From: Thermoplasmata archaeon | GTDB lineage: Archaea > Thermoplasmatota > Thermoplasmata > Lutacidiplasmatales > UBA184 | Length of the DNA: 64,000 bases | Direction of reading: 5' to 3' | Assembly (NCBI GenBank): GCA_022750115.1 | Contig: JAKIWI010000002.1 | Location: 109,221 to 173,220 of the forward strand | In this document: in pieces, positions 3,432 through 48,826 of the stretch | Position numbering within the stretch: the first letter of the stretch is position 1 | Layout: each line of letters begins with the position of its first letter | Made by a program: the position numbers and the translations under genes | The notes under the pieces: generated by a model | Seen by the model: the letters and a program-made list of their open reading frames with translations, nothing else | What the model was told of the DNA's origin: nothing | Databases searched by the model: none

Positions 3432-5237
3432 CTACATCCGGTCGAGCCGGGCGAGGCCGAGCAGCGCGAGCGTGTTGCCGAGGGCGGTGCGGGAGGCCGC
3501 CACCAAGGCGAGCCGACTCTCCCTCTCGCCTCCTTCCGCCTTCAGGACCGGGGTCAGTTGGTAGAACGAGTTGAACGCGTCGGCAAGGTCGTGGCCGTAG
3601 CCGGCGATCGAGTGGACGTGCGTGGTCCGCGCCGCGTTGGCGACGGTGCGGGGCAGTCGGGCGAGCACCCGGACGAGCGCGCGTTCGGCCGGGGTCGTGA
3701 GGAGAGACCCATCGGCTTTCGGGGGGAGGGAAACGCCCTCCTCGGACGCCTTGCGAAGCAAGCTCGTCGCGCGGGCGAACGAATACTGAAGGAACGGCCC
3801 GCTCCGCCCCTCGAACGAGAGCGCGTCCTCCCATCGGAACGCGACGCTCTTCTCGGCGGCGACGCGGAGGATGTGGTAGCGGACGGCGCCCGCCGCGAGC
3901 GCGACTGCGATCTCCTCAACGGCCCCCTCGCCGAGTTCGGGGTTGCGAGATCGGACCTCTGCACGGGCCCGGTCCGTCGCCTCGTCCAAGAGGGAATCGA
4001 GAAGGACGACGGTCCCTTTTCGAGTCGACATGCGACCTTCCCCAGGGAGCGTGATGTACTGGTACAAGACGAACTCGGGCTCCCGGGTCTCCCCGATCTC
4101 CGTGAGCAAGGCCTTCAGAGTTTTCGCGTGCAGCAGATGGTCCTGGCCGAGCACGTCGACGACCCGGGCGAACCGCGCGAACTTCTGCAGATGGTAGGCG
4201 ACGTCCCGGGTCGGGTAGACGGTCGTGCCGTTCCCCCGGAGCACGATGGCCCGCGCCTCCTCGGTCGGGAGGCCGTAGACGGAGGTGTCGATCGCGAGCG
4301 CCCCGTTCTCCTCAACGACCGCGTGCGGCGCCTTCCGGAGCCGTTCGACCACGCGTTCGACCGAGCCGTCGTGCAGGAGGCTCGACTCCCAGACGAACTC
4401 GTCGAACGAAACACCGACGCGGGCGAGGCTCGCAAGCATCCCCTGGAGGATCGCCTCGCAGTAGCGGCGGTGCTCCGGGGAAGCGTCGCCCCGTTCGAGT
4501 CGCTCGGACAGAGAGGCGAGCTCCGCCGCCGCCTCGGGATGCGTCTTGACGTAGGCCGAGACCGCGGGATAGGGGCGTCCGAGGTAGTGGTCCGCCCGCT
4601 CCTCGCGCTCGTCGGCCCCCTGGAGCGTCTCGAGGATCTCGGGGGGCCAGGACTCCTTCGGCTTCGACCAGATCCACGTGACCATCGCAGACTGGCGGCC
4701 GATGTCGTCGACGTAGTATTGAGTGGTGACCGGGGACCCTGCGGCTCGGAGCACGCGCGCCAGCGTGTCGCCGATGAGGGCGTTGCGGACACGACCGATG
4801 TGGAACGGCGCGTTCGGGTTGGCGCTCGTGTGTTCGACGCAGACGGTGGCCGGTGACCCTTCCCAGGTCCCGTAGCGATCTCCCCGTACGGCGATCATGG
4901 CGAGCGTTCGCTCGGCGAGCCATGCCGGGTCGGCCTCGAAGTTGACGTAGGCTCCGACCGCGAATCGCCGCACGACGCCGGGGATCGCGGGGAGCGTGTT
5001 CGCGAGCTCGATCGCAAGCTCCGGAGCAGATCGGTGGGCCGCCGCCGCCACGCGGTGGAGCGGGATCGCCACGTCCCACCCGTCGCCACCGTCGGTGTCG
5101 AGGAGCCGCGCGACGGCCGCCCGGTCCGGGCCGGCGAGCGCCGCGGTGAGGGCGTCGACCAACGGCCCGACGAGCGCGGCGAGCGGATCGACCGCGGCCG
5201 CGTCCTGGCCCCCGGGGTCGGACGCGCCCTTCGCCAA
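3432..5237 (-). CDS. argS: Arginine--tRNA ligase
   Basis: Class I 'SANPNAPFHIGRVRNALIGD' (HIGH) and 'MSTRKG' (KMSKS variant typical of ArgS). 601 aa. Confidence 0.93.
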   Translation of the reverse strand: MAKGASDPGGQDAAAVDPLAALVGPLVDALTAALAGPDRAAVARLLDTDGGDGWDVAIPLHRVAAAAHRSAPELAIELANTLPAIPGVVRRFAVGAYVNFEADPAWLAERTLAMIAVRGDRYGTWEGSPATVCVEHTSANPNAPFHIGRVRNALIGDTLARVLRAAGSPVTTQYYVDDIGRQSAMVTWIWSKPKESWPPEILETLQGADEREERADHYLGRPYPAVSAYVKTHPEAAAELASLSERLERGDASPEHRRYCEAILQGMLASLARVGVSFDEFVWESSLLHDGSVERVVERLRKAPHAVVEENGALAIDTSVYGLPTEEARAIVLRGNGTTVYPTRDVAYHLQKFARFARVVDVLGQDHLLHAKTLKALLTEIGETREPEFVLYQYITLPGEGRMSTRKGTVVLLDSLLDEATDRARAEVRSRNPELGEGAVEEIAVALAAGAVRYHILRVAAEKSVAFRWEDALSFEGRSGPFLQYSFARATSLLRKASEEGVSLPPKADGSLLTTPAERALVRVLARLPRTVANAARTTHVHSIAGYGHDLADAFNSFYQLTPVLKAEGGERESRLALVAASRTALGNTLALLGLARLDRM

Positions 5238-5276
5238 GCAACGCTAAATCGGAACTTTCATCTTAACGATTCCTCC

Positions 5277-6173
5277 GTGACGTCGCTCGTCCTCGTTCGG
5301 TACGGCGAGCTGGCGCTGAAGTCCGCGCCGGTCCGGCGGGAATTCGAGCACCGGCTCCGCCAGAACATCCTCGGCCAGTTCGTGCGGGCGGGCTCGACCT
5401 GTCGGATCCGCGCCGATCACGGCCACGTCTACGTCGAGGCCGACGACGGCGAGGGCGCGGTCCGCCTGCTCCGCCGGACGTTCGGGGTAACCTCGGTGAG
5501 CCTCGCCGTCGAGGTCCCGACCGACCGGGCCGCGATGCGCGCGGCGGTGCTGGAAATGGCCGCCCGTCACGTCCGTCCGGGGATCTCGTTCGCACTCCGA
5601 GCACGCCGCACGGGCACCCACCCGTTCACGAGCCAGGAGCTCGGGCGCGAGCTCGGAGGAGACGTGTTCGAGGCGTATCGATCGATCGGGATCCGGGTCG
5701 ACCTCGACCACCCCGAGCTCGAGCTGTTCGTCGAGGTTCGTGGCCCGCGGACGTACCTCTACGCCGACCGCGTCGCCGGCCCCGGCGGCCTGCCACTCGG
5801 GGTTGCGGGGCGCGTCGTCGCGCTCGTCGACGGCCCACGCGGCGCGCTGGGAGCCTACCTGATGATGAAGCGCGGTTGCCGGTGCGACTGGGTCGCCAGC
5901 GGCGAGGGGGTCGCTCTCGCCGATCGTGTGCTCCGCGCCTTCGATCCCCGTGCTCCCACCGCCGTCAGCGAACCGACCGACCCGCTGGACTCGGCGATCG
6001 CCGCGCAGCTGGCCCAATCGCATGCGGACGGAGTTGTGCTGCCGCTCTCCGTCGACGACTACACCAACGCTCGGTCGCGATGGGGAGACGTCGTCGTCTT
6101 CTCGCCGACCGTCGGCCTGACCGACGAGGAGGTGGGAGCGCGATGGCACGCCGTCGAGGAGCTCGCCGGCTGA
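5277..6173 (+). CDS. THUMP-domain ThiI-like protein with degenerate PP-loop
   Basis: 'LVLVRYGELALKSAPVRREFE' is a ThiI N-terminal/THUMP region. The PP-loop position reads 'ALVDGPRGALGAYLMMKRG' instead of SGGxDS. Start taken at in-frame GTG 5277, because the longer ORF-track start overlaps argS. Confidence 0.7.
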   Translation: MTSLVLVRYGELALKSAPVRREFEHRLRQNILGQFVRAGSTCRIRADHGHVYVEADDGEGAVRLLRRTFGVTSVSLAVEVPTDRAAMRAAVLEMAARHVRPGISFALRARRTGTHPFTSQELGRELGGDVFEAYRSIGIRVDLDHPELELFVEVRGPRTYLYADRVAGPGGLPLGVAGRVVALVDGPRGALGAYLMMKRGCRCDWVASGEGVALADRVLRAFDPRAPTAVSEPTDPLDSAIAAQLAQSHADGVVLPLSVDDYTNARSRWGDVVVFSPTVGLTDEEVGARWHAVEELAG

Positions 6174-6371: not shown

Positions 6372-8492
6372 CTAGGCGAATCGAACCGGCATCCGCTTCG
6401 GCGGGGGCGGCTTCCGGTACTTCGGGCCGGGTCCGACGTTCGCTTGTCCGACGGCGACGGGCTTGTTCTTCTGGGCGAGCCGAGTGAATCCGGCCCCCAG
6501 GAAACCGGCTCCGAGCGCCTGGACCGACAGGCTCGCGATGCTGGTGGCCGCCGTCGGGGTCGGGATCGCGGCGCTCGGCAACGCCGGGCTCGGTATGGAT
6601 AGGAACGGAGGTGGGGTGGCGGGTGGCGGGGCATTCCCGGGCGGCACCGGGGCCTCGGGGCCGTAGACGATGCGAAGGATCGCGAGCGGGAACGACTCGA
6701 CGAGGGGACTGCTGTCGACCTGCGAAAGGTAGCGGGCGGCCGTCCAGGTACTGCTGACCGGGCCGCTCCCGCCGGCGGCACAGAGCGCGGTCGTGCACGC
6801 GTCCACCGGGATGCTCCCATACGGCGGACCCACCGCGATCACGTCGAACGAGGCGATCCACAAGTCGCCCGTGGTCAGGAAGTTCTTCGCCGGGTTGTTC
6901 GACCAGTTCCAGTTGAGGCTCGTGAAGCCGGAGCCGTTCACGTAGTCGGGAGAGGGGCAGATCCCGAGGGGACCGTCGGCGGTGAGGCAGGTCGTCTCCG
7001 AGTGCAGGTTCGGTGCGGGCCGGACGTTTGCGAACGGCACGAAGCGGAACATCGACACGTTCCCGCCGCGTGCGGCGATGTCGGTGACCGTCGGGCCGAA
7101 GCTGACGCCGCGAAACGCTGCGAACAGCGAGGGGTTGGAGGTTTGGGGCGTGTTCACAGGGCCGTACGGGACGTAATCGAGGTCGCCGAGCTGTCCATCC
7201 GGACAGCTGTAGTACGAAGGACCGTCCCACGAGCCGTTCGTCGCGTGCGCGAGGTCGCAGCCGGCGGTCAGGATCCGCTGGGAGTTCTGGATGACGTAGA
7301 CGCCGCCGGGCCCCCCGTTGTGGGACGACGGCCAGCCGGACGAGTACGGGTCCGTCGGCGTTGTCCACAGGTCGATCACATCGATCGTACATCGCTTCCC
7401 GAGCGAGTTGGCGCAGTCCGGTGCCGTGTTCGAGAGCGAGGCGATGGATTCGGCGCTGCCGCCGTTCGCCGAGACCCAGCCGATGCACGAGGGGCTGACC
7501 AGCCCGCCGAAGTTGTACGCGGGCTCGCAGCCGTCGCTGTAGGGCCCGGCCCCGCCGTAGCAGGCGTACCGCCATGCCTCCGACGCACTGACGCAGTAGT
7601 TCTGGACGTAGGAGGGGTCGCGCGGCGCGGTCGAACCGATCAGCACCAGAACGTGGTGAGCGTTCGGGAGCCAGTTGATGCCGTAGCCCTCCAGGACCCC
7701 GTACAGCGCCGTGATGCTGTCGGAATGCAGGTAGTTGTCCCCGAAGTCCGCGTCGTTGTAAGTCCAACCGCCCCCGAGGACGTTCTGGCCGAACGACCCG
7801 GCCACGGCCGCGCCGAACTGCGGGGCCGTCACGGGGGCGCCGACGTCGACGTGGTAGGCGTACGATTGGAAGTCGTTCAACTGGTCGTCGTACACGTCGC
7901 CGGTCGAGAAGAAATCCACGAGGCCGAACGTCACCGACGACCGGGGATTCACGGCGGCGATGGAGTTCGCGATATCGCCGGCGTGCGTGACGAAGAACGG
8001 GATCGCGTTCGACTCCTCGCACGGCTCGTGCAGGGACGAGTCCGCGCAGCTCTCGGTCCCCGGCGTCCCGCCGGTGCCGTCGTACGCGCCGTCGTAGATC
8101 GTCGTCTCGAGGAGGAAGACGACCTGGACCGCGGGGTAGGAGACGGTGACGAGCGCGGGGGCGGCCGCCGTCATGGTGACGCGCGCCGACCGTTCGTCGG
8201 AGGGGCAACCGAGATTGTTCGAGACGCAGATGATGCCCGGCGTCACGGAGATCGACAAGGAGAGCGCCCCGGTCCCGGACGAGACGGCCGGCGCGACCAG
8301 CGCTCGGGCCGCAACCGTGGGGACCACGGGCCCGGCGGCCGCCGGGGTCGGGGCGAGGAACGTCGCGGAAGCGCTCAGCGCGAGTGTCCCGAGCACGGCG
8401 CACACGGCCAGGATCAGCGTCCCGTTGTGACCGCGGGGAGCGCGGAATCGGCCGACCGCCTCGTCCTGGTCGCGCACGCTCGGTCGGCTCAT
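6372..8492 (-). CDS. Large secreted/membrane-anchored protein, possible vWA-like fold without MIDAS
   Basis: N-terminal hydrophobic segment 'LILAVCAVLGTLALSASA'. Several N-x-S/T sequons and many Cys. Beta-alpha pattern 'VQVVFLLETT...FGLVDFF...HVLVLIGSTAP'. Pro-rich linker, hydrophobic C-terminus and basic tail. Confidence 0.55.
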   Translation of the reverse strand: MSRPSVRDQDEAVGRFRAPRGHNGTLILAVCAVLGTLALSASATFLAPTPAAAGPVVPTVAARALVAPAVSSGTGALSLSISVTPGIICVSNNLGCPSDERSARVTMTAAAPALVTVSYPAVQVVFLLETTIYDGAYDGTGGTPGTESCADSSLHEPCEESNAIPFFVTHAGDIANSIAAVNPRSSVTFGLVDFFSTGDVYDDQLNDFQSYAYHVDVGAPVTAPQFGAAVAGSFGQNVLGGGWTYNDADFGDNYLHSDSITALYGVLEGYGINWLPNAHHVLVLIGSTAPRDPSYVQNYCVSASEAWRYACYGGAGPYSDGCEPAYNFGGLVSPSCIGWVSANGGSAESIASLSNTAPDCANSLGKRCTIDVIDLWTTPTDPYSSGWPSSHNGGPGGVYVIQNSQRILTAGCDLAHATNGSWDGPSYYSCPDGQLGDLDYVPYGPVNTPQTSNPSLFAAFRGVSFGPTVTDIAARGGNVSMFRFVPFANVRPAPNLHSETTCLTADGPLGICPSPDYVNGSGFTSLNWNWSNNPAKNFLTTGDLWIASFDVIAVGPPYGSIPVDACTTALCAAGGSGPVSSTWTAARYLSQVDSSPLVESFPLAILRIVYGPEAPVPPGNAPPPATPPPFLSIPSPALPSAAIPTPTAATSIASLSVQALGAGFLGAGFTRLAQKNKPVAVGQANVGPGPKYRKPPPPKRMPVRFA

Positions 8493-13279: not shown

Positions 13280-13936
13280 ATGCCCGACCCGTACACCCAG
13301 TTGCTGGAGTGGCGGCGGGCCGAGGGCGCGGCGCGAGGACTTGCGAAGCTCCCGCTCGAGTTCTACGACACGACGCGCTCGTTCCTCGCCGAGGTCCGGA
13401 AAACCTTCGAGGCGGAACTTCGGGCGAACCCCGGGGGGAAGAAAGGGGACCTGGCACGCCAGACCCACTCGCGGGCGAGCCAGGTCGCCCGGGACATCGT
13501 CGAAGCTCGGATGTCGAAGGTCCTCAGCGTCGCGTTCCAGGCCAGCGTCGGCGGGTCGCGCGACATCCCGAACGCTCTCCCCGAGGAGAGAGCCCTCTTC
13601 GACCGTGTCGTCGACGTGCTCCGGGGTCATCGGACGGCCGTCGCCCCGTTCCTCGAGTCGACGGCGGTGGCCGGCGCCTCGGCGCCCATCGTTGCCGCCC
13701 CCCCGGAGGTTCTCGGGACGGGACACCCGACCTCGGCCCCCTCGACCCCTCCCGACGCGCCGCGCCTCGCCTACGTCCGTGTCCTGAAGGACGGACCGAC
13801 CGTCGAGATGGGGAAGGAGACGCTCGAGCTGCGCGCCGAAGACGTGCTCGCGCTCCCCGAGGAACGGGCGAATCTCCTCGTGAAGAGCGGCCTCGCCGAG
13901 CGGATCCGCCGCGACGAGCGGCCAGTCACGACGTAG
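13280..13936 (+). CDS. gins51: GINS complex subunit (Gins51-type)
   Basis: N-terminus 'YTQLLEWRRAEGAARGLAKLPLEFYDTTRSFLAEVR' fits the archaeal Gins51 A-domain pattern. Start at the internal ATG 13280. Confidence 0.65.
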   Translation: MPDPYTQLLEWRRAEGAARGLAKLPLEFYDTTRSFLAEVRKTFEAELRANPGGKKGDLARQTHSRASQVARDIVEARMSKVLSVAFQASVGGSRDIPNALPEERALFDRVVDVLRGHRTAVAPFLESTAVAGASAPIVAAPPEVLGTGHPTSAPSTPPDAPRLAYVRVLKDGPTVEMGKETLELRAEDVLALPEERANLLVKSGLAERIRRDERPVTT

Positions 13937-15008
13937 GGCCGACCGGCTCGGGAGCCCCGAGCTCGAGGACGTGGAACGTCTCGAACCCGAACAGCAAGTT
14001 CTTGGCCTGCAGGCGGAGCTTCACGGCCTCCTGGGAGTCGGACGCGGACTTCTCCCGGGCGGCGAGGAGTTGCGGAAACCCCCACGCCCCGAGAGCCTCG
14101 GCCTGACGACGGAACGCGCGCTCGACCAGTCCGGCGCGGACGGCGGCGGCGCGCAGCCGGGTGAAATCCACGAACGCACTCAGGTCGGCGGTCCCGGGTT
14201 GAGCGAGGGGCTCGACCGGTCGGTGGCTCCGAACGGCGGCGAGGGTCCCGGCGCGGTGCCCCCGGAGAAGCTCGTCGGTGCTCGCGCCGTAATCCAGGAA
14301 GATGGCGGTGCCCGCGCTCAGGTGGTCCGCGACTTCGCGCACGAACCCATCGGCCCGTTCGAGGAGCTCGTACCGGCTCTCCTCCTCCGCCGGGGGGAGC
14401 GCTTCGCCGGGGATCGTGGGTGCGTCGGGTCCCTCGGCCCACTGCCACGTCTGCCCGTCCCACCGCACGCCCAGCTCGCGCCACGCGCCCCCTCGCCACG
14501 TCAGCCGGCGGAACGGGAGGGCGTCGAGCAGCTCGTTGGCGACGACGGCGCCCGCGAAGGGACCGCATTCCGATACGGAATCGGCGAAGGTGAACGAGAC
14601 GGACGTCGCCGCTGTCGCGGCGCGAACCCGCTCCGCGAGCGCTCGACGCAGCTTCGAGGACCGTTCCACGAACGTCCATTCCCAACCGGCTCCGTCGGAG
14701 GGGAGGGCGCGCGCGACATCGAGCGCGAGCGTCCCGTCCCCAGGGCCGGCCTCCACGACCCGGAAGTGCGCGGGGTTCCCGAGTCGCTCCCGCTCGGCCT
14801 GGAGCCGTCGCGCCAGCGCGGCGCCGAACAGCGGCGTCGTGTGCGCTGCGGTGTAGAACGAGCCCTCCGGTCCGAACGGAGCGTCGGACGAGTCGTAGAA
14901 CCCGCCCGCGGAGTAGAGCACGATCTCGACGAACCGGTCGAAGCGGAGGACGCCTCCGTCGGCGGCGGCGCGGAGCCGTTCGCCGACCGCGTCGGCCGGC
15001 GCCGCCAT
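13926..15008 (-). CDS. MidA/NDUFAF7-family (DUF185) SAM-dependent methyltransferase
   Basis: 'FDRFVEIVLYSAGGFYD...GPEGSFYTAAHTTPLFG' and 'VVEAGPGDGTLALDV' are DUF185 hallmarks. Confidence 0.75.
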   Translation of the reverse strand: MAAPADAVGERLRAAADGGVLRFDRFVEIVLYSAGGFYDSSDAPFGPEGSFYTAAHTTPLFGAALARRLQAERERLGNPAHFRVVEAGPGDGTLALDVARALPSDGAGWEWTFVERSSKLRRALAERVRAATAATSVSFTFADSVSECGPFAGAVVANELLDALPFRRLTWRGGAWRELGVRWDGQTWQWAEGPDAPTIPGEALPPAEEESRYELLERADGFVREVADHLSAGTAIFLDYGASTDELLRGHRAGTLAAVRSHRPVEPLAQPGTADLSAFVDFTRLRAAAVRAGLVERAFRRQAEALGAWGFPQLLAAREKSASDSQEAVKLRLQAKNLLFGFETFHVLELGAPEPVGPTS

Positions 15009-15015
15009 CGCTGGT

Positions 15016-15792
15016 TCAGCCGATGTAGCCGAGGTCGTCCCGGCTGGCCGGGGAAGGCGATTCGGGGGGATGCGCCTCGGCCTCGTGGATCTTCTGGGCG
15101 ATCCGGTCGATCTCCTTCGCCTTCGCTTCGAGGTCGGAGAAGTCGATCGTGACCTCGAGGATGCGCGCGAGCACCTTCAGGACGGCCTCGGCGCTGCGCG
15201 GGTCGACGAAGTAGCCGCTCGTCTCGCCCATCAGGCAGACGCCGTGCATGTCGTACAATCGGCCGAGACCGAGGAACAGGCCCGAGGCGCCGATCAGGCC
15301 GCCGCCGGGGTCGTTCCGCGAGAACACCACGCCGAACTTCTTCATCGCCTCGACGCGCTCGGGCGAGGTCGCGGCGCCGAGCACGCGGGGGGTGTCGACG
15401 ACCCGCCCCTGGGCGAACCCGGCGAGCGTGTAGACCTCCTTCGACCCGAGCGAGTGGGCGACCGACAGGATGCGTTCCGTCAGCTCGTACTGGCCCTCGG
15501 GGGTGATGCCCTGGTAGTCGCCGTTGAGGATGAGCAGGTCGCGCTCCTTCGGGCCGACCGCGCGCCGGTAGGACAGCTCGTTGGAGACGAGCCGCGTCAG
15601 GCCCTCCTCGCTCACGTAGACCTGGGGCGGGAAGAACTTCGAGTAGATCGTGGCGAGCGGTTTCGCTTCGAGCTTGTCGCGGAGGTAGTCCGCCGCGAGC
15701 TTCCCAACGTTCCCGACGCCCGGAAGTCCCTCGACGAGGACGGGGTCCTTCAGCTGGACCTTCTCGACCCACCGGATGTGAACATCGTCCAT
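15016..15792 (-). CDS. PAC2-family proteasome assembly chaperone-like protein
   Basis: 'PVLVEGLPGVGNVGKLAADYL' and 'GASGLFLGLG' are typical of the archaeal PAC2/COG1938 family. Confidence 0.75.
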   Translation of the reverse strand: MDDVHIRWVEKVQLKDPVLVEGLPGVGNVGKLAADYLRDKLEAKPLATIYSKFFPPQVYVSEEGLTRLVSNELSYRRAVGPKERDLLILNGDYQGITPEGQYELTERILSVAHSLGSKEVYTLAGFAQGRVVDTPRVLGAATSPERVEAMKKFGVVFSRNDPGGGLIGASGLFLGLGRLYDMHGVCLMGETSGYFVDPRSAEAVLKVLARILEVTIDFSDLEAKAKEIDRIAQKIHEAEAHPPESPSPASRDDLGYIG

Positions 15793-15840: not shown

Positions 15841-16623
15841 CTAACCCGACCGCGTTGCGGTGGCCTTCGGGTCCGGTCGCGCGACCGTGAGCCCGGTTTC
15901 GGTCATGCGCGCGGGTAGGATGCGCGTCCGCTCCGGATGGTTGCGGATCTTGCGCACCGCGAGCAGGTGTTCGTAGGCCTCGCCGCGTGGACGCGCCGTG
16001 AGCTCGACGACGACATCGGCCATGTCCTCGAGCATCCCCGAGACGCGCCGCTCGTGGAACTCTCCCTGCACGACGAGGAGCGCCTGCCCCCCGAGCTCCT
16101 GGGCGCGGTGGCGGATCTGGCGGACCATCGTCATGACGTCGGCGTTTTCGAGGACCTCGAAGAAGAAATCGAGGGAGTCGAGCACGAGGCGGAACCGTCC
16201 GTCGAGCGCGGCCAGGTCGGCCAGGAGCCGGCTCGTGATGTTGTACGTCGCCGCGGCGCTCGGCTTCGGCCGGTTCGTCGTGCTCAGGTCCGCGACCTTC
16301 AGGCCGCGCTCGCGGCGCTGCGAGACCTCGAGCGAGCGCACGAGGACGTTGCGGAAGTACTCCTCCGAGAGGTTGACGATCTGGACGCCGTCGGGGTCCC
16401 ATCCGAAGTCGCGGAACGCCTTGTGGACGTCCTCGGTCCGCTCGTAGGTCGTGTAGTACAGGACGGGCGACGCCCCGACCATGGCCTGGGCGAACTGCTT
16501 GGCGAACAGCGGGGTCCCGGCGCCGGAGTGGCCGACGAGGAGTCCGAGCCACCCCGGCGGCATGTAGGGGAACAGCTCCGGGTCGAGCTCGGGGATCCCG
16601 AGGACGCTCTGGTCGGTCGACAC
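15841..16623 (-). CDS. KaiC/RecA-superfamily protein with degenerate Walker A
   Basis: KaiC-like layout, but the P-loop reads 'GHSGAGTP' and lacks the Lys-Ser/Thr. A Walker-B-like 'FRLVLDSLD' is retained. Confidence 0.7.
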   Translation of the reverse strand: MSTDQSVLGIPELDPELFPYMPPGWLGLLVGHSGAGTPLFAKQFAQAMVGASPVLYYTTYERTEDVHKAFRDFGWDPDGVQIVNLSEEYFRNVLVRSLEVSQRRERGLKVADLSTTNRPKPSAAATYNITSRLLADLAALDGRFRLVLDSLDFFFEVLENADVMTMVRQIRHRAQELGGQALLVVQGEFHERRVSGMLEDMADVVVELTARPRGEAYEHLLAVRKIRNHPERTRILPARMTETGLTVARPDPKATATRSG

Positions 16624-16627
16624 GTCC

Positions 16628-17215
16628 TTACGAACGCCTCCGGACGACCTCGATCGTCTCGTCGACGACGAGACCGAGGAGCTGGTCGAGCTCGGACTGG
16701 CTGTCCTCGCTGACGATCAGCAGCACCGTCAGCACCTGACGGCTTTTCAGATTGTTCACCAGGATGTGGAAGAACTCCGAGAGGAGGTCCGCCGGGTTGT
16801 GGATCGCGAGCGAGTTGACCGAGTCGATGACCAGCAGCGACCGGGGGCTGGGGTGCTTCCGCAGCAGGTACTCGACGCGGAGCATGATGTCCTCCAGCAT
16901 CCGCGGCGACTCGACGTACGTCGCATTCGGGAGCGGGTCGCGGTAATTCATCATGATGTGGCTGATCGCGTCGACGAACGAGAGCCGGGCCGCGTCGACG
17001 TCGAGCGCCTGCGCGAGCGACCAGACGAGCGAGGCCGGGTTCGTGACCGAGACGTAGATGGTGTGCGCGTTCGTCTCGCTGCCGACGTCGCGCAGGGTGG
17101 CGTTCAGGACCGCGAAGTAGTCGTCGGCGTACTCCCGCGGGTTGAGCCGGATCGCCACCGCCGAGCCGCCCGGCAGCTGCCGCAGCCGCTCGCCGATGTC
17201 GTCCTCGGATGCCAC
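16628..17215 (-). CDS. KaiC/RecA-like protein lacking a P-loop
   Basis: No GxxGxGK[ST]. A Walker-B-like strand 'SLLVIDSVNSL' and RecA-fold periodicity are retained. 195 aa. Confidence 0.55.
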   Translation of the reverse strand: MASEDDIGERLRQLPGGSAVAIRLNPREYADDYFAVLNATLRDVGSETNAHTIYVSVTNPASLVWSLAQALDVDAARLSFVDAISHIMMNYRDPLPNATYVESPRMLEDIMLRVEYLLRKHPSPRSLLVIDSVNSLAIHNPADLLSEFFHILVNNLKSRQVLTVLLIVSEDSQSELDQLLGLVVDETIEVVRRRS

Positions 17216-17216
17216 G

Positions 17217-17993
17217 CTACGATTCCTGGCGTCCGCCCTTCAGGTGGGGCGCCATCAGGAGTCCGATCGGGGTGAGTTCCATCACATATTGCGCGCGGGA
17301 GTGCGAGGTGCCTCGCATCTTGACGACCTGGAGGATCCGCAGGATGTCGCCTTGCCGGCGCGCGTTGCCGAGCAGGATCACGCCGTCCACGATCGCCTCC
17401 TCGACGCCGTGCAGCGAGTAGCGGCCCGCGCTCTGGCCGATCTCCGACACGAGGAGGGTCGTGCAACCGAGCTCGGCGAGCCCTTGCGAGAGCTTCAGCA
17501 TGAAATCGCGGATCCGCTCGTCGCGCCGGATCCGGTAGCAGACCGAGGTGAGCGAGTCGACGACGACGCGGTGCGCGCCGACTTCGCGCGCGAGGTCGAG
17601 GAACGCCTTCAGGAGGAGGTCGATCTCCTCGACCGTGAGCTCTTCGTGGTTCAGGCCGAGCAGGTCGTAGATCTGCGGAACATCGACGAAGACGAGCCCG
17701 CCGGCGCTGATCAGGTCCTGGCGGAAGAACTCGAACGCCGAGAGATTTTCGATGAGCTTCGCCGAGGCCTCGGTGACGGAGAGGAACAGCGTCCGCTCGC
17801 CCTTCTCGGCGCCGCGGACGAGGAACTCGAGGCAGAGCGTCGTCTTGCCGGTGCCGACGCTACCGGCGATGAGGACGAGGTTGCCGCGCGGAATCCCCCC
17901 GCCGAGGATGTTGTCGAGCCCCTCGATGCCCGTGAGGCAGCGCTCCCGGAGCCCTCCCGCATCGGGCGGAGCTGGCTTCGCCGCAGATGCCAT
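17217..17993 (-). CDS. KaiC-like single-domain RecA-superfamily ATPase (intact motifs)
   Basis: 'GIEGLDNILGGGIPRGNLVLIAGSVGTGKTTLCLEFL', Walker B 'HRVVVDSLTS', and 'ILQVVKMRGTSHS'. Confidence 0.85.
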   Translation of the reverse strand: MASAAKPAPPDAGGLRERCLTGIEGLDNILGGGIPRGNLVLIAGSVGTGKTTLCLEFLVRGAEKGERTLFLSVTEASAKLIENLSAFEFFRQDLISAGGLVFVDVPQIYDLLGLNHEELTVEEIDLLLKAFLDLAREVGAHRVVVDSLTSVCYRIRRDERIRDFMLKLSQGLAELGCTTLLVSEIGQSAGRYSLHGVEEAIVDGVILLGNARRQGDILRILQVVKMRGTSHSRAQYVMELTPIGLLMAPHLKGGRQES

Positions 17994-18017
17994 CGGTGGA
18001 AAAGAGGCGACCTCGGG

Positions 18018-20501
18018 CTAAAGTCCTTTCCGAGAGTCGGAACGACCTCGGGTGGCCACGAGCCGGGTCCAGCGCTCGCGGGCGTCTGCGAGTTCGTCGG
18101 GTTCCAGCTCGGGCCCGAGCAGCTCCCGGAGCCGATCCCGTCGGACCGTCCAACTCCGGCCCGCGGGCGAATCCGTCGCCTCGAGTGCCGCCGCCGCTGC
18201 GAGCCGACCTCCCGCGAGCCGAACCGCATCCCCGTCCGGGTCGATGACCGACCGGAGCTCATCCAGCAGAACCGTCAGCGAGTCCCGCTCTCCCCCGTCG
18301 AGGAACCCGGCCCACAGCACGAGCAGCGCCGTCCGAGCCCCCTCCCGGCCCCCCCGTTCGTCCGAGGGCCCGCCGGAGTCCGGTTCGGGCGCAACGTCGA
18401 GGTCTTCGGGAGCCGCCCACAGATCCCGCGACTGCTCCCAGACCTCCCTCCAGCGATCCGGACGGGGGCGTTCGGGCGCGAACGGGAGTCGGACCCATCC
18501 CGATTCCCCGCCCTTCCCGATCAGGACCGCGGCTTCTCCCCGGCGAAGCGAGAGGGTCGACTCGATCGACAGTTCACTGACCCAACGGGCGAGCTCGCGA
18601 GCGTCGTCGGGGGATCCACGGAACACGACAAGGTCCGCACTGTTGGTGAGCGCCGCCTCCCGGACGGATTCCGCCAGGGACGCGAGCGACTGGGTCGCCG
18701 CCCACAGATGGGCGTTGAACCGCCGGCCGAGGCGCCACAACTCCACGGCGGACTCGTTGGCGAACCACTGGATCTCGTCGGCGACGACGAACACCTTCTC
18801 CGACGAGCCTCGCGAGATGAGGTCGGACCACAGCAGCGCGAGATGGACCGAGAGCAGCAACCGTGCCGCCGACTCGCCGACATCGGGCGCATCGCCGCTG
18901 AGCACGACGATCTTCCCGGCCCGAGCGGACGCGGCCACCGAGAACGTCGATTCCCGGCCCGCCAACATCCGGGCGAGGACGGGAGAGCGGACGACCTCGT
19001 CGAGGACGCGGCGCGCTCCGTCCAGCTCCTCGGGCCGAGAGCGGGCCCGGTCGGTCAGTTCGCGAACCGCGTCCCGCGCGGCCGGCGGGACGGTGCGTTC
19101 GCGCGTCGCTCCGCTTCCCAGGAGGGCCGCCGCCTCCCGGAGGGTGCCCTGCGGGTAGCGCGAAGCGGCCCGGAGCGCCAAGTGGACCATCTCCTCGACG
19201 CGCGGTCCCCAGAACGGCGAGTCGGCGTAGCGGCCCGCGCGAACCCGGCGGAGCGCCTGGACCAGGTCGGCGAGCGCCCGATCGCCCGCGGGCCCAGGGC
19301 GCGTCGCCCCAGCGAGCGCGTTGACGGCCACCGGCGAGACCGAGGGCGAAACCCAGACCACCCGGCCGACCGCGCTCGACGGCAAACGGTCCAGGAGGCG
19401 CCGCGACGTGTCCCCGACGGGGTCGAAGAAGACGACACCGCCGCGCTCGGCCGCGCGGACGGTCGCGTGGAGGAGCGCGGTGCTCTTGCCCATTCCGGTT
19501 TCCCCGAGGAACAGCGCGTGCCGCCCCTGGTGAGGTTCGACGGGCAAGCCCCACACGCGACCCGAACTCGAGCGGGCGATCGGGATGGTCGCTGCCGCCG
19601 GGGAGAGCTCGGAGGACGGGATCGGGAGGCGGAGTCCTGGGGACGGGAACAGTGCCGCGACCTCGGGCAGGGCGAGGACGATGGGTGGTGGGCCGCGCGC
19701 CCGGAGCCTCCCGACCCGCCGCCAAGCGAGGCCGTTCCCTCCGTCGGCCCGCGCCGCGGCCGCGACCATCCGGCCGCAGGACTCGCCGGCACTCCGATCC
19801 GGACTGGACAGGACCGCTCGGACGTCCCACTGCGGAGCCAGAAGTCGTTCCGCCGCCGCATCCGAGAGCCGGCGCGCCACCGTCGGTGGGGGTTGCGCTC
19901 GGAACCCCGACGGTTGCTCGACGAACGACGTGGGGGTGGCGATGGAGCTCGCTGCGCCGAGAGGACGAAGCCGCCATTCGAGGCGCGTTCCGGGCGGGAG
20001 GAGCGTGAACGCGGAAACGACGGAGTCCGACCAGGGAGCGAGCCACTCTACCGCCCACGGATGGGGAAGCCCGGGACCGAACAGCGAACGGCCGACCGCC
20101 GCCCATCCGGGGGCCCGAGGCGCGGGGGTCGCCTCGACCCAACTGCCCGCCGGATAGGCTGGAAGGAGCGTAGCCGTCAGCCAGTCGGAAGTCGCGCGGT
20201 CGGCGGCCGTGAGCCGGACCCCGCCCGCCGAGCCGCTCCGCCAGGTGATCTCGAAATCGACGGGGCATCCCCCCGCCAGTCGAAGGGCACCCAGCAGCGC
20301 GTAGTGGAACCGGTCGGGCCGCTCCGGCCTTCGAGCGACGGCGCTTCCGCGGAACGCCCACGACCTCCACTCTTTTCTCGCGCCGATGGGATTCCGTACC
20401 ACGAGAACGGCTGCCGAAGGCGGGAGAAGTCCGATGCGGACCCGACGAACGATGAACGACGAGTCCGGCCGCCGGAGAGCGAGCCGATATGTACGGTGCA
20501 C
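18018..20501 (-). CDS. TraD/VirD4/HerA-FtsK-like P-loop NTPase with an uncharacterised ~330-aa N-terminal domain
   Basis: Walker A 'FLGETGMGKST', Walker B 'KVFVVADEIQWF', and 'LWAATQSLASL' as in T4SS coupling-protein-type ATPases. I saw no TM segment. The start is uncertain because it overlaps the divergent drg ORF start. Confidence 0.7.
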   Translation of the reverse strand: MHRTYRLALRRPDSSFIVRRVRIGLLPPSAAVLVVRNPIGARKEWRSWAFRGSAVARRPERPDRFHYALLGALRLAGGCPVDFEITWRSGSAGGVRLTAADRATSDWLTATLLPAYPAGSWVEATPAPRAPGWAAVGRSLFGPGLPHPWAVEWLAPWSDSVVSAFTLLPPGTRLEWRLRPLGAASSIATPTSFVEQPSGFRAQPPPTVARRLSDAAAERLLAPQWDVRAVLSSPDRSAGESCGRMVAAAARADGGNGLAWRRVGRLRARGPPPIVLALPEVAALFPSPGLRLPIPSSELSPAAATIPIARSSSGRVWGLPVEPHQGRHALFLGETGMGKSTALLHATVRAAERGGVVFFDPVGDTSRRLLDRLPSSAVGRVVWVSPSVSPVAVNALAGATRPGPAGDRALADLVQALRRVRAGRYADSPFWGPRVEEMVHLALRAASRYPQGTLREAAALLGSGATRERTVPPAARDAVRELTDRARSRPEELDGARRVLDEVVRSPVLARMLAGRESTFSVAASARAGKIVVLSGDAPDVGESAARLLLSVHLALLWSDLISRGSSEKVFVVADEIQWFANESAVELWRLGRRFNAHLWAATQSLASLAESVREAALTNSADLVVFRGSPDDARELARWVSELSIESTLSLRRGEAAVLIGKGGESGWVRLPFAPERPRPDRWREVWEQSRDLWAAPEDLDVAPEPDSGGPSDERGGREGARTALLVLWAGFLDGGERDSLTVLLDELRSVIDPDGDAVRLAGGRLAAAAALEATDSPAGRSWTVRRDRLRELLGPELEPDELADARERWTRLVATRGRSDSRKGL

Positions 20502-21643
20502 CGTCGGGACGACGGAGCCTCGACGTGTCCGCCCTCGAAGAGCAGATCACCGCGGTCGAGGACGAGATCCGCAACACCCAGTACAACAAGGCGACGCAGC
20601 GCCACATCGGTCGACTGCGGGCGAAGCTCGCGGTCCTGCGCCTCGAACGGGAGACCCGGGCGAAGGGGAAGGGCGGCGGAACTGGGTACTCGGTCCGCAA
20701 ATCCGGCCACGCGACGGTCGGCCTCGTCGGCTACCCCTCGGTCGGAAAGTCGACCCTACTCACCCGGCTCACGGGCGCCGAGAGCGAGGCGGGCGCCTAC
20801 GATTTCACGACCACCTCGATCATTCCCGGGATGCTCCGCTGGGGCGGCGCGTCCATCCAGATCCTCGATATGCCCGGACTGGTGCCCGGGGCGGCGAAGG
20901 GGCGCGGTCGCGGACGCGAAGTGCTGTCGGTCGTCCGCGCCGTCGACCTCGTGCTCTACCTCATCGACCCGGAGCACACCGACTTCACGGCGCTCAAGAA
21001 CGAGCTCGAAGGATCCGGGGTCCGCAACAACCAGCGCCCGCCCCGCATCGTTGTGACCCGCGCCGACCGCGGGGGACTCACCGTCTCGAGCACGGTCAAA
21101 TTGACCCATCTCGCCGGAGGGCTCGCGGCCGACATCGCGCGCGAGTTCGGCCTCCACAACGGGCAGATCGTCCTGCGCGAGGACGCGACCTCCGACCAGC
21201 TCATCGATGTACTCGCGGGGAACCGGGTCTACCTCCCCGCGATCCTCGCCGTCAACAAGTGCGAGCTGTTGTCGCCGGCCCAGCGAGAGGCGATGGCGGT
21301 GCGCCTCCGCGAGTTCCGCCCGCGGTTCATCTCGGCGCGGGATCGCATCGCCCTGCCCGACCTCGTGGAGGCCATCGGCGAGGCGCTCCAGTTCATCCGG
21401 ATCTACGTCAAGCCCCCGGGGGAGGACCCCGACATGGACGAACCCGTGATCCTCCGCAAGGGCAACAAGATCACCGACCTGCTGAAGCGCCTCCCCACGG
21501 AGCTCGACGCGGCGTTCAAGTCAGCGCAGGTGTGGGGAACGAGTGCCCGGTTCCCCGGTCAGACCGTCGGCCGGGACCATCCGCTCGCCGACGAGGACAT
21601 CATCACCGTCGTCGTGCAACGCGGGGCGCGCCCCGGCGCTTAG
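20489..21643 (+). CDS. drg: Developmentally regulated GTP-binding protein (DRG, Obg family, TGS domain)
   Basis: 'IRNTQYNKATQRHIGRLRAKLA', G1 'GYPSVGKSTLL', 'DMPGL', and a C-terminal TGS-like 'GQTVGRDHPLADEDIITVV'. The in-frame GTG at 20525 is a likelier start. Confidence 0.88.
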   Translation: MYGAPSGRRSLDVSALEEQITAVEDEIRNTQYNKATQRHIGRLRAKLAVLRLERETRAKGKGGGTGYSVRKSGHATVGLVGYPSVGKSTLLTRLTGAESEAGAYDFTTTSIIPGMLRWGGASIQILDMPGLVPGAAKGRGRGREVLSVVRAVDLVLYLIDPEHTDFTALKNELEGSGVRNNQRPPRIVVTRADRGGLTVSSTVKLTHLAGGLAADIAREFGLHNGQIVLREDATSDQLIDVLAGNRVYLPAILAVNKCELLSPAQREAMAVRLREFRPRFISARDRIALPDLVEAIGEALQFIRIYVKPPGEDPDMDEPVILRKGNKITDLLKRLPTELDAAFKSAQVWGTSARFPGQTVGRDHPLADEDIITVVVQRGARPGA

Positions 21644-43295: not shown

Positions 43296-45314
43296 ATGGG
43301 CCCTTGTCGCCCGCGGACTTCGCCGAAGCGTTCGACGGCGGCTCGCGCGTACGTCCGCGGCCGGACCCGCACCGAGCGGATCCCCGGGGTCGATAGCCGT
43401 CGTCGCGCCATGCTCGGATGGAGTCATTGGCCGTGGGGACTCGCCGCCCTCCTCACGGTAATCGGGGGCGTCCTCGGGTGGGGCGTGATCCGGTTGCACC
43501 GCTCGCTCGACCGAGGTCACCGTCTGCCTCCGCTCTCGGAGGCGACGTACTCGGTGTTTTCGGGCGTGAGAGCCGAGGCCCCTTCCGGCTTTCGAGGATT
43601 CGCTTGGAAGTTTACGACCACGTTCGTCCTCCTTGGTTCCGCCCTGCTCCTGGTCGGCCCGTGGCTCTTCGCCGGGTTCGGTTCGCTCGAACAGTGGCTC
43701 GCGGCGATCGCTCTGTGGCCCCGACCGGCGGCGCTCGATATTCAGCCCGACTACGTGTTCCTCCTGTTCGTCGCGCTCTTCGCGACTCTCGCGACCGTCG
43801 TCGGCCTCGAATTCGATGCCGTTCGTTGCACGCCGAACGAGCGGACCCGTCCGGTCGCCTACCTCGGATTGTACATCTTGGCCGCGGCGGCGATTGACGT
43901 TGCGCTCGGGTTCGCTCAGTGGCCGTTCGCCTACGGCCTGATCCCTCGTTCGCTCCTCGGGGGGGAGTTCTACACCCTTGCCCTCTTCCGACTCGCGAGC
44001 CGGCCCCGCCCGATCGTGATCGTGACCGAACGCCGGGACCCGGCGACGAAGTTCACGTTCGCGCTTTGCCTCGGGGTGAGCATCCTCGCCGCCGTGGCCG
44101 TGATCGTGCTCCTCTACCCAGTTTGGCTCGCGACCGGTAACGCCGTCGTCCGGGTCTCCTTCCTCCTCCTCATCCCCTCGCTTTCGGTCGTCTTCTTCGG
44201 CGCGTTCGGGCTTCTGCTCTACCTTCGAAGTGAAGGGAGGGAGGCTCGCCTCCGCCCGTCGGTCGCGGACTTCCATCCCGCGGTCTCGATCATCATCCCG
44301 GCGTACAACGAGGCCCCGACGATCGCCGAAACGCTCGCCCGGGTCGACGCGGCCGCCGCCGAGTACCCCGGGTCGGTCGAGGTCATCGTCGGAAACGACG
44401 GATCCTCGGACCGAACTTCGGAGGTCGCCCGAGTGGCGATGCAGGTGTTCCGTCACTCGACCGGTCGGTGCCTCGACCTCGCGCACGGCGGGAAATCGAG
44501 TGCGCTGAACGGGGCGCTTCTCGCGGCGAAGGGCGAGGTCGTCCTTCGGATCGACGCCGACACACCGGTGGTCCGGTTCGCCTCGATCATCCCATACTTT
44601 CACGACCGGGACATGGGGGAGGTCCAGGGTCGGATCCTCCCCGTTCGACGGACGGGATGGATCGCCCGATTCCGGCTCATGGAGGTGATGTGGAACCACG
44701 CGTTCTTCCGACGGGCCCTCCTGATCACCGGCGCCGTCCAGGTCCTCTCGGGGAACTTCTGCGCGTTCCGGCGGGACCGGTTGCTGGCCGCAGGCGGCTG
44801 GGTCCCCTGGAACGGGGAGGACGCGGAGATCTCGATTCGCTTCCTTCGGCTCGGTTACAAGCTCCGGATGGACCTGGACTCCCTCGCCTACGAGGATACG
44901 CCGGACACGGTGGGCCACTGGCTCAAGCAGCGGATTCGCTGGAATCGGGGAGGCTTTTTCTCGCATGCGTATCACTACGGGGCCCTGTTCGGCGGGCTCG
45001 AGTGCGGCGCGGCCTCGATCTACTGGTGGCTCTGGCTCGCGGCCCGGAGCGCCCGGAAGTACCTTGTCCTCGTGTTCGCCCTCGCCCTCTCGTTGGCCGT
45101 GCTCCCGTTCGACATCTTCCGCGTACTGGTCCTGATGGGTCTGATGTTCTTGCCCCGGGCGATCGTCATCGCCGCCTTCCTCGCCCGGTGGGGCTTCCTC
45201 CGGCAGGTGGGTTGGGCTCTCGCGTGGCCCGTTCTCTGGGTGTTCCGGTCCTACTTCTATCTCGAGTCGCTCGGCACGATCCTGCCGGGAAACGCGCCGG
45301 AGTTCTCCGATTGA
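43296..45314 (+). CDS. Processive family-2 glycosyltransferase (polysaccharide synthase) with N- and C-terminal TM bundles
   Basis: 'VSIIIPAYNEAPTI', 'VGNDGSSDRT', 'RIDADT', 'FCAFRRDRLLAAGGW', 'EDAEISIR', and 'QRIRWNRG' (the QxxRW processivity motif). ATG 43410 is an alternative start. Confidence 0.85.
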   Translation: MGPCRPRTSPKRSTAARAYVRGRTRTERIPGVDSRRRAMLGWSHWPWGLAALLTVIGGVLGWGVIRLHRSLDRGHRLPPLSEATYSVFSGVRAEAPSGFRGFAWKFTTTFVLLGSALLLVGPWLFAGFGSLEQWLAAIALWPRPAALDIQPDYVFLLFVALFATLATVVGLEFDAVRCTPNERTRPVAYLGLYILAAAAIDVALGFAQWPFAYGLIPRSLLGGEFYTLALFRLASRPRPIVIVTERRDPATKFTFALCLGVSILAAVAVIVLLYPVWLATGNAVVRVSFLLLIPSLSVVFFGAFGLLLYLRSEGREARLRPSVADFHPAVSIIIPAYNEAPTIAETLARVDAAAAEYPGSVEVIVGNDGSSDRTSEVARVAMQVFRHSTGRCLDLAHGGKSSALNGALLAAKGEVVLRIDADTPVVRFASIIPYFHDRDMGEVQGRILPVRRTGWIARFRLMEVMWNHAFFRRALLITGAVQVLSGNFCAFRRDRLLAAGGWVPWNGEDAEISIRFLRLGYKLRMDLDSLAYEDTPDTVGHWLKQRIRWNRGGFFSHAYHYGALFGGLECGAASIYWWLWLAARSARKYLVLVFALALSLAVLPFDIFRVLVLMGLMFLPRAIVIAAFLARWGFLRQVGWALAWPVLWVFRSYFYLESLGTILPGNAPEFSD

Positions 45315-47866: not shown

Positions 47867-48131
47867 TCGCAGGGCCGAGCCGGCGTCACCGGTATCGGCC
47901 ATTCGAGAGAACCCGACCGGTCTGTTGTCGTCCCGGGTGCTCGAGCCGCCCGAGGCGGAGGTCAGGCGGCGCCCCTCCGTCGTCGGTTCCCACGGTCGTT
48001 CGGCCCCTGATCTGGACCGGGCGGGCCACCCACGGGATTCCAAGGGAGCAGCTGCGTTCCGGCTGCATGGGTGCGCCGTCGGCGCCACGGCAGGGCCGAG
48101 AGCTCGTGACCAAAGTCACCGCTCGCACGGA

Positions 48132-48296
48132 ATCGCCCAAAGTGCGCTGGCGGCCCCGGCGATCGCGTTCCTGCCGGTCGCCTTGCCGGTGGCCGAAACG
48201 GCGACGAGCCACACCGTTCCAATCCTCCGAGCGCGATTCGCCGGAGCCCCGTACGCGCTCGGTTCGACCACGATCGAAGCGTGCCAGGGCGACGGC
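48132..48296 (+). pseudogene. Fragment: N-terminal remnant of a paralog of the 53574..54383 secreted protein
   Basis: 'AFLPVALPVAETATSHTVPILRARFAGAPYALGSTTIEACQG' aligns with 'LLLAAPFAESATPPAAATLRAPFAGLPYLGSTTSTEGCQV' of the intact gene. There is no start codon nearby, and similarity ends at about 48300. Confidence 0.6.
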
Positions 48297-48309
48297 CCGG
48301 CCCTCGGAC

Positions 48310-48597: not shown

Positions 48598-48603
48598 AAA
48601 CCC

Positions 48604-48719: not shown

Positions 48720-48826
48720 GAACCTGGCGAGCGGTTCGCTGCCCCCCCTAGGAGTGGGCGTGGTCCAGACTCGTCACGAGGACCCGTCCTCCGGTCCAGC
48801 GACATTCACCCGCCCTCGCCGGGAGG

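Follow-up and report, generated by a model that had tools for sequence, protein, structure and literature searches.

Genes of the locus and the BIG-K1 junction

Four genes lie close together on the minus strand of the window, the 64,000-nucleotide stretch of a Thermoplasmata archaeon contig (JAKIWI010000002.1) analyzed here (Table 1). The first, BIG, encodes a large ATPase and is followed by K1, K2, and K3, which encode one canonical KaiC-like protein and two degenerate relatives. The gaps between BIG and K1, K1 and K2, and K2 and K3 measure 24, 1, and 4 bp; this arrangement, described in an earlier sequence-only reading of the same DNA, was confirmed by the open reading frame (ORF) coordinates and the coding guanine-plus-cytosine (GC) content, with third-position GC of 0.83-0.95 in the four genes, typical of coding sequence in the window. 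The same-strand run extends past K3, first to a PAC2-family gene 48 bp away and then, across a further gap of 7 bp, to a Methyltransf_28 gene. Pfam assignment of the neighbors agreed with the earlier description of a housekeeping block lacking an adjacent membrane pore gene; neither a pore gene nor any other membrane gene lies nearby. The short spacing had been taken to imply one transcript; comparison with related loci points instead to two neighboring units, BIG and an older K1-K2-K3 operon, rather than one demonstrated operon, a reading toward which we lean with modest confidence.

In archaeal promoters, a purine-rich B recognition element (BRE) accompanies a TATA box whose center lies some 26 nt from the start site, and a proximal AT-rich element is found near -10. 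At the BIG-K1 junction of the window, the element GGAAAGGACTTTAG includes the TAG stop codon of BIG (18018-20) and is followed by TTTT at about -13 to -10 from the K1 ATG, and the consensus upstream of K1 across loci reads CACAACCCTCTTAGGGACGGAACGGCTCGTTCTACCG-ATG. Of 107 non-redundant loci, 88 have an AT-rich tetramer whose first base lies 24-30 nt (mode 27) upstream of a start codon in frame; the shuffled-sequence control averaged 3.7 such loci and never exceeded 9. In loci whose BIG stops 60-256 nt farther upstream (L015, L019, L021, L028, L040, L041), the box remains equally far from K1; it is retained where an opposite-strand DUF1697 gene intervenes, and an AT-rich box stands at a similar distance from K1 in sister lineages without BIG. 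Comparable ACCTTTAT(A/C) boxes precede the PAC2 and L15e genes, and no similar box was found before K2, K3, or Methyltransf_28. A scan for sigma-70 promoters and intrinsic terminators, whose model is unsuited to archaeal promoters, gave no match at the BIG-K1 junction. Because the box-to-ATG geometry matches that of archaeal promoters, we predict that the K1 element is a BRE/TATA-like promoter giving a leaderless K1-K2-K3 mRNA, and the predicted units of the region are BIG, K1-K2-K3, and PAC2-Methyltransf_28.

With the BIG stop codon lying within the K1 box, the short gap would mirror promoter geometry and not co-transcription. The conserved box and the DUF1697 insertion in seven species speak against the single transcript that had been deduced from the spacing, and that deduction loses its support because the box persists where BIG ends earlier or an opposite-strand gene intervenes. 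A single operon would have no internal promoter and an unbroken same-strand order in relatives; as far as the sequences tell, the locus has a candidate internal promoter and an order that is interrupted in several relatives. Where an archaeal genome is compact and its mRNAs are leaderless, a gap of about 25 nt can hold a full promoter, and short spacing by itself is no proof of an operon.

Two further features of the BIG ends were noticed. In close relatives (P0002-P0007), BIG terminates in a conserved peptide, (S/A)(R/Q)KGL followed by the stop, which is encoded by AAAGGACTTTAG, the very bases of the K1 box (18018-18032); this looks like a dual coding and promoter constraint. At the other end, the DRG-BIG intergenic region (20403-20500 in the window; L001-L126) carries a conserved TACTTGAG (TACATATC in the window) with CACCGTTCA about 25-30 nt later, which may mark either a region of divergent promoters or the place where BIG starts.

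Conservation of the locus and the triplet without BIG

When one genome per species was scanned, a BIG relative turned up in 144 species, and 80 loci were kept, all but one labeled Thermoplasmata, Thermoplasmatota, or Methanobacteriota, the remaining one being a metagenome-assembled genome (MAG) labeled 'bacterium'. The order DRG (opposite strand), BIG, K1, K2, K3, PAC2, Methyltransf_28 was seen in almost every locus of sufficient length; the contig of P0048, the most distant BIG relative, is too short to inform on gene context. Across BIG- and K2-anchored searches, the order BIG-K1-K2-K3 holds in about 120 related loci, all from Thermoplasmata (one MAG labeled 'bacterium'), so the linkage, whose absence from related genomes had been named beforehand as a refuting observation, is present there. 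Every named BIG homologue is from a Thermoplasmata MAG, Candidatus Lutacidiplasma and Lutacidiplasmatales being among the names, and BIG is specific to one Thermoplasmata clade whose named members are Lutacidiplasmatales. Genomes of this order have about 69% GC and a size of about 2.1 Mb and are reported to be without archaellum genes (PMC9287336). The flanking DRG, PAC2, and Methyltransf_28 genes are as syntenic as the BIG-K1 pair, so adjacency alone does not single out BIG and the K genes as a functional pair. The proteins of the locus differ in pace: identity to the window is 37-58% for BIG, 64-93% for K1, 63-93% for K2, and 71-90% for PAC2, and the mean pairwise distance is 0.86 for BIG, 0.25 for K1, and 0.26 for K2.

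Interruptions in related loci also fall at the BIG-K1 junction. The opposite-strand DUF1697 gene stands there in a sub-clade comprising seven species loci (L002/L052, L024, L026, L030, L036, L037, L050), with a further 3.5 kb or so of genes inserted in L026, and other loci carry insertions of 1.3-4.5 kb. In two species the triplet is gone from the site: a 148-aa ORF takes its place between BIG and PAC2 in L073 (10300-10860), where BIG still lies beside DRG, and in L068 (10250-16074) BIG lies beside DRG and is followed by two response-regulator/helix-turn-helix genes.

Other Thermoplasmata, most of them lower in GC, have K2 orthologues that are 31-41% identical. In all six of these sister loci (L084-L089), K1, K2, and K3 are found without BIG and are followed by one to three Pilin_N genes, K3 being absent in one locus. 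Upstream of K1 stands an opposite-strand OMP-decarboxylase/RraA gene (a TPR gene instead in one locus), and the K1-K2-K3 junctions are overlapping. Orthology to the window is one-to-one, with identities of 41-59% for K1 (58-59% in five of the six loci), 31-41% for K2, and 33-37% for K3 in the five loci having it; because such orthologues exist in sister lineages without BIG, the triplet is, on sequence grounds, older than BIG. The Pilin_N genes (about 9400-11200 in L084-L089) share a near-identical textbook class III signal peptide, AVSPVIATILMVAITVVLAAVLY, and an RDD-family membrane gene lies just beyond the pilins in five of the six loci. KaiC-family genes have been reported at archaeal type IV pilus loci in general (PMC4858521). 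In L084 and L088 a protein of about 1500 aa is encoded nearby, with an InlB B-repeat (Flg_new_2) match in L088.

The idea of one dedicated four-gene system fits poorly with these data, as the triplet is older and stands without BIG beside pilin genes, and BIG-K1 synteny is no stronger than that of the flanks. In its most developed form, this idea would make BIG and the K ring a single module in which a KaiC-like switch gates a VirB4/HerA-like motor; in this clade it could be a soluble machine handling DNA or protein, as successor to a pilus-linked role. Same-strand adjacency of BIG and K1 in essentially every clade locus, with very short gaps in many species, argues for such a module, and there is precedent in the KaiC-like protein ArlH, which modulates the hexameric ATPase ArlI (PMC12448462; PMC4858521). 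A mirror-tree analysis gave BIG its highest residual distance correlation with K3 (0.41). Against the module stand the equally syntenic housekeeping flanks, the older triplet without BIG at the locus, the promoter-like box of K1, the opposite-strand insertions, and the two species from whose site the triplet is gone. The co-evolution signal is likewise unspecific, the residual correlation being 0.33 for BIG with Methyltransf_28 and -0.20 for BIG with K1, and the BIG-K3 value is probably a shared fast-rate effect. We therefore regard a single module as unlikely, while keeping it in view.

Several points weigh against our preference for two units and what we build on it. Among K2-anchored metagenome loci with at least 3.8 kb upstream, BIG lies upstream on the same strand in 44 of 44, at BIG identities down to 37%, and the BIG-K1 gap is 19-25 nt in about half of the species. 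An internal promoter is compatible with a longer BIG-K transcript, read-through being possible, and part of the conservation of the K1 box could stem from the TAG that it shares with the BIG stop codon in many loci. A search with a class III signal-peptide pattern and tblastn with 11 sister-lineage pilins found no pilin gene in the window or at any BIG-bearing locus (L001-L082), and the pilus link of the triplet in this organism is indirect. The oligomeric states and DNA binding of the BIG and K proteins used below are ones that we infer.

Domain structure and family placement of BIG and the K proteins

The 827-aa length first given for BIG corresponds to an existing ORF, and its start is probably placed too far upstream. 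The longer start is judged probably wrong because BIG would then share 13 nt with the divergent DRG gene, because homologues begin near residue 45 of the 827-aa ORF, and because residues 1-42 have a predicted local distance difference test (pLDDT) score below 50 in the AlphaFold2 (AF2) model; an in-frame GTG at 20402 would give 794 aa. In the numbering of the 827-aa ORF, the motifs GETGMGKST, VFVVADEIQWF, and ATQSLASL (residues 602-609) were all located as described. Residues G333, E334, G336, M337, G338, and K339 of Walker A and E576 of Walker B are invariant among 33 family members, and D575 is nearly so. The absence of a transmembrane segment from BIG held up (maximum Kyte-Doolittle mean over 19 residues, 1.43), and no transmembrane-like segment was predicted in any of the four proteins. 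The N-terminal part, said to show no recognizable motif, indeed has no Pfam match over about 300 aa; modeled alone, this domain reached a pLDDT of 89.6. The acidic C-terminal portion of about 150 aa proved to be partly so: an acidic linker is present (residues 691-720, net charge -6), and what follows (721-827) is a folded, near-neutral domain (net -2). This C-terminal domain, in which R761, G764, and W784 are invariant across the family alignment, has in the model a topology that appears winged-helix-like, added to a VirB4-like layout, with weak sequence hints only (PhoB at E 0.3 in a profile search; PaaX Pfam in 3 of 23 members). Matches of the same domain to PRDM9 zinc fingers were set aside as repeat artifacts.

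BIG is a divergent soluble member of the FtsK/HerA/VirB4/VirD4 superfamily with invariant catalytic motifs. Foldseek searches of the model against the PDB gave 136 matches at E<=1e-3, led by TrwK, HerA, TrwB, and VirB4, in accordance with the earlier assignment to coupling proteins of type IV secretion systems (T4SS) and HerA-FtsK ATPases; the top match was TrwK/VirB4 (8rtd, E 9e-14, about 840 columns aligned), and others were HerA (4d2i, 9x1m, 8sub), TrwB, Thermoanaerobacter VirB4, DndH-C, TdpA, and the Sir2-HerA and DUF4297-HerA complexes. The N-domain alone matched the TrwK N-terminal domain (7o42_E) best, though weakly (E 1.3e-2, prob 0.98, TMq 0.50), and nothing else notable; its sequence gave no signal. 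In BFVD, the best full-length matches, Bacillus phage G gp156 (G3MBM2) and a 913-aa phage JL protein (S5MSQ0), both at E of about 5e-26, surpassed any solved structure (phage matches of about 825-913 aa); the adjacent gp155 of phage G also matched the BIG model (E 4e-10). Sequence models see only the P-loop region: all Pfam and NCBIfam matches of the window protein are below threshold, and the BIG family profile retrieved from PDB sequences only the Walker A neighborhood of HerA, EssC, and TrwB. More distant family members pass DUF87 and TrwB_AAD_bind (P0039, 28.6 bits for the latter).

Membership in the characterized families of this superfamily was examined in turn. As a VirB4, BIG scored 12.2 bits against a cutoff of 325 (NF045971, CD1110 VirB4-like), with no VirB3, VirB6, VirB8, or pilin gene in L001 or L002. 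As a VirD4/TraD coupling protein, it has no transmembrane segment and scored 13.1 against 20.5 bits (PF10412) and 15.1 against 366 (TIGR03743). As HerA, the window protein scored 15.1 against 23.2 bits (PF01935, DUF87) and has no NurA or effector neighbor; as FtsK/SpoIIIE, it has no transmembrane segment and no PF01580 match (only 13.9 bits for P0039). The connection to Ced-type import and conjugation that had been raised was not supported, the CedB model (NF041017) giving 12.9 bits against a cutoff of 700, over the P-loop only, with no membrane gene adjacent. By these comparisons BIG falls outside VirB4, VirD4/TraD, HerA-NurA, FtsK, CedB, and MADS, the weak N-domain match to VirB4 deciding neither way, yet clearly shares their superfamily fold; the suggested check for a known family thus ended at the superfamily level, with Foldseek and profile searches placing BIG in no characterized family.

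Two other origins for BIG were considered in this light. BIG might be the motor of a defense or genome-conflict system of the Sir2-HerA, DUF4297-HerA, TdpAB, DndFGH, or MADS type that lies beside the K operon by chance. Its best sequence-profile match is the PADLOC hidden Markov model mad8 (E 1e-13, residues 324-676, the whole ATPase core), its fold matches include components of such systems, and it evolves much faster than its neighbors. However, K1 also matches mad8 on its P-loop (E 1.6e-5), so the match is partly unspecific, at least around the P-loop; in a PADLOC scan that covered K1, K2, and K3, these matched no other model at E<0.05, and the remaining flanks are PAC2, Methyltransf_28, and DRG by Pfam. 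No Sir2, nuclease, or DNA methyltransferase effector adjoins BIG, which is fixed beside DRG in nearly all clade loci, unlike patchy, island-borne defense genes, and we consider a defense role improbable. A descent from a conjugative element or Ced/Ted-type DNA transfer, with BIG as a remnant VirB4 or coupling-protein homologue, would agree with the full-length and N-domain matches to TrwK and with the members that pass TrwB_AAD_bind. This origin is very hard to reconcile with the missing transmembrane segment, the NCBIfam scores far below cutoff, the absence of VirB2/3/6/8, relaxase, CedA, or integrase genes from the surrounding 8-10 kb of over 100 loci, and the housekeeping context with unchanged base composition (about 70% GC throughout the window), and we give it very little weight.

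The distinction between one canonical and two degenerate KaiC-like genes was borne out. K1 is a KaiC-family member with intact Walker A and B (PF06745, E 4e-56, 190 bits against a cutoff of 26.6): its Walker A, GSVGTGKTT, lies at 17838-17864, VVVDSLTS is conserved, and KMRGTSH is found at 17298-17324. Profile searches of the PDB with K1 gave KaiC (E 7e-73) and PH0186 (E 2e-49), with FlaH/ArlH at 1e-5 only; as ArlH/FlaH, K1 scored 48.8 bits against a cutoff of 215 (NF052589), with no arl genes nearby. By sequence, K2 and K3 are degenerate members without the Walker A lysine. Although both the P-loop and the C-terminal part are missing from K2, its conservation equals that of K1; the protein scores 25.5 bits for PF06745, just below the cutoff, and resembles DUF7504. 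K3 belongs to KaiC by fold (PF06745, E 8e-15, 55 bits), and its P-loop, GHSGAGTPLFAKQFA (GHSGAGTP in the window; pattern G-x-x-G-S-G-x-x-L-x-A-K-Q-F-A), is without the GK[ST] lysine. The R-K-[IV]-R-N-H-P-E of K3 (RKIRNHPE) aligns with the V-K-M-R-G-T-S-H of K1, which we take to be the arginine-finger region of KaiC.

A first homologue search with K2 listed close relatives only; the distant ones came from a search of 1.84 billion representatives, in which the K2 profile found 737 relatives, including degenerate KaiC domains of the DUF7504 and DUF835 types. K2-like DUF7504 domains also occur at the C-termini of giant TPR/CARDB/BatD proteins (920-1767 aa) and fused to DUF835 (P0218, P0230, P0235, P0205, P0264), which suggests that this type of domain can be reused in various proteins as an intracellular adaptor.

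The make-up of the triplet, with two degenerate subunits among three distinct RecA-like ones, also recalls the Elp4/5/6 hetero-hexamer, and an archaeal counterpart acting in tRNA or RNA modification would suit the nearby Nop56/fibrillarin and methyltransferase genes. K1 matches PAXNEB (Elp4; 1.2e-5) and K2 matches Elong_Iki1 (Elp5; 6e-3), both below threshold. PDB profile searches with K1 and K3 yielded KaiC, PH0186, PH0284, RadA, and FlaH and no Elp4/5/6 chain, the K2 profile yielded nothing, and the sister-lineage triplet stands beside pilin genes, not RNA-modification genes; an Elp-like complex is accordingly the least probable of the explanations considered here. A KaiABC circadian oscillator was also rejected, as the K proteins are single-domain and no KaiA or KaiB-like gene was found in the neighborhood of the triplet.

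Table 1. Coordinates of the genes, domains, and predicted elements at the locus (positions in the window; residues in the 827-aa ORF)
Feature	Position	Strand	Description
BIG, longest ORF	18018-20501	minus	827 aa, GTG start
BIG, probable extent	18018..20402	minus	794 aa; soluble FtsK/HerA/VirB4-superfamily ATPase; AF2 model built with 33 sequences, pLDDT 83
BIG N-terminal alpha/beta domain	19596..20375	minus	residues 43-302; no Pfam match
BIG ATPase core	18432..19595	minus	residues 303-690; all-helical insert (about 400-530) between Walker A and Walker B
BIG Walker A	19479..19505	minus	GETGMGKST, residues 333-341
BIG Walker B	18762..18794	minus	VFVVADEIQWF, residues 570-580
BIG C-terminal domain	18042..18359	minus	residues 715-820; helix-strand-helix-helix-strand-strand
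K1 promoter-like element (predicted)	17994..18031	minus	GGAAAGGACTTTAG, then 24 nt including a T-rich stretch, then the K1 ATG
K1	17217..17993	minus	258 aa; canonical single-domain KaiC-like ATPase
K2	16628..17215	minus	195 aa; truncated KaiC-like pseudo-ATPase, DUF7504 type
K3	15841..16623	minus	260 aa; KaiC-like pseudo-ATPase
PAC2-family gene	15016..15792	minus	own AT-rich box 43-56 nt upstream; next transcription unit (predicted)
Methyltransf_28 gene (NDUFAF7-like)	13926..15008	minus	no promoter-like box of its own
DRG-type GTPase gene	20489..21643	plus	MMR_HSR1 and TGS; divergent; bounds the cluster

Beyond the four genes, the PAC2 and Methyltransf_28 pair (13926-15792) stays together in most related loci long enough to judge, with no obvious explanation. 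A 706-aa ORF on the minus strand (6372-8492) has a strong coding signal (third-position GC 0.91) and no Pfam match. Genes for a series of very large proteins, probably located at the surface, occupy 35747-62989; the products are a 1018-aa protein with PKD, a 1124-aa one with PQQ/beta-propeller, a 1631-aa one without a clear Pfam match (45766-50661), a 1059-aa one with an InlB B-repeat, and a 1148-aa one with PKD/Kelch. Among these genes are a GT2 glycosyltransferase gene (43296-45314) and M29-peptidase-like genes. Scans for tRNA genes and for Rfam families at the gathering threshold found none in the whole 64-kb window. The close relative L001 carries an inserted TnpB-like (Cas12f1-like_TNB) gene (4540-5454) that separates the ribosomal P1 gene from purF, and no counterpart was seen at the corresponding place in the window.

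Possible roles and relation to known systems

If the locus consists of two neighboring units, BIG would have been fitted into the space separating DRG from the K operon, with so little room to spare that the BIG stop codon came to fall in the TATA-like box of K1. BIG may assemble as a hexamer in which ATP drives the translocation or remodeling of nucleic acid, most likely double-stranded DNA, with the C-terminal domain recognizing DNA or a partner and the VirB4-like N-domain docking the protein. K1, K2, and K3 would be made in a fixed ratio and form a mixed KaiC-like ring in which only the K1 sites hydrolyze ATP or autophosphorylate, while K3, and perhaps K2, would provide its trans-acting and adaptor surfaces. 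By analogy with ArlH-ArlI, this ring could work as a switch based on its nucleotide or phospho state, and the system that it served in the ancestor would have been a type IV pilus. That the ring acts on BIG, so that the two units are functionally coupled, we think doubtful. Less probable still is the fuller scheme in which the pilus-linked hetero-ring was re-wired to control BIG, creating a cytoplasmic, KaiC-gated machine for the translocation or remodeling of DNA (or protein); if true, such a machine would be one not described before, in archaea reported to be without archaellum genes.

BIG and the K triplet are uncharacterized, strongly conserved modules in widespread soil and peat archaea. 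VirB4-like motors are usually bound to membrane machines, and a cytoplasmic BIG in a housekeeping context would broaden the uses of this fold. The triplet, which is widely distributed among Thermoplasmata lineages, in turn offers a testable case for KaiC-like control of archaeal surface filaments and for hetero-oligomeric KaiC-like rings.

Among known proteins, phage G gp156 and the phage JL protein resemble BIG in length and align over about 860-960 columns, but they are of bacterial-virus origin, share 13-14% identity, and are themselves uncharacterized, so they carry no functional information. TrwK of plasmid R388, a VirB4, likewise has about 800 aa and combines an N-terminal alpha/beta domain with a C-terminal RecA-like ATPase that has a helical insert. 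Sequence similarity between BIG and VirB4 is confined to the P-loop. Unlike VirB4, BIG has an extra C-terminal winged-helix-like domain, and it is chromosomal, with apparently vertical inheritance and a housekeeping context, and without VirB3/6/8 or pilin partners. VirD4, TraD, and TrwB share with BIG the all-alpha insert between Walker A and B (TrwB TM-score about 0.6 on the target), whereas BIG has no N-terminal membrane anchor and no relaxase or transfer genes nearby. HerA has the same superfamily fold, and its DUF87 is detectable in distant BIG relatives, but BIG has no HAS-barrel N-domain match and no adjacent NurA, Sir2, or nuclease gene. The winged-helix-like domain of BIG and the gamma domain of FtsK are analogous in position only.

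For the K proteins, the nearest comparisons are with KaiC itself and with the KaiC-like genes of surface filaments. K1 and K3 match the domain of cyanobacterial KaiC strongly, and K1 keeps Walker A, Walker B, and KMRG(T/S)xH, whereas the triplet consists of three separate single-domain paralogues (195-260 aa) and not of a CI-CII tandem. Compared with ArlH-ArlI and the KaiC genes of type IV pili, the triplet has no arlI/arlJ or pilB/pilC nearby and no adjacent pilin in the BIG clade, and it comprises three distinct subunits, two of them inactive; what it shares with those systems, in its sister lineages, is a single-domain KaiC-like gene standing beside surface-filament genes.

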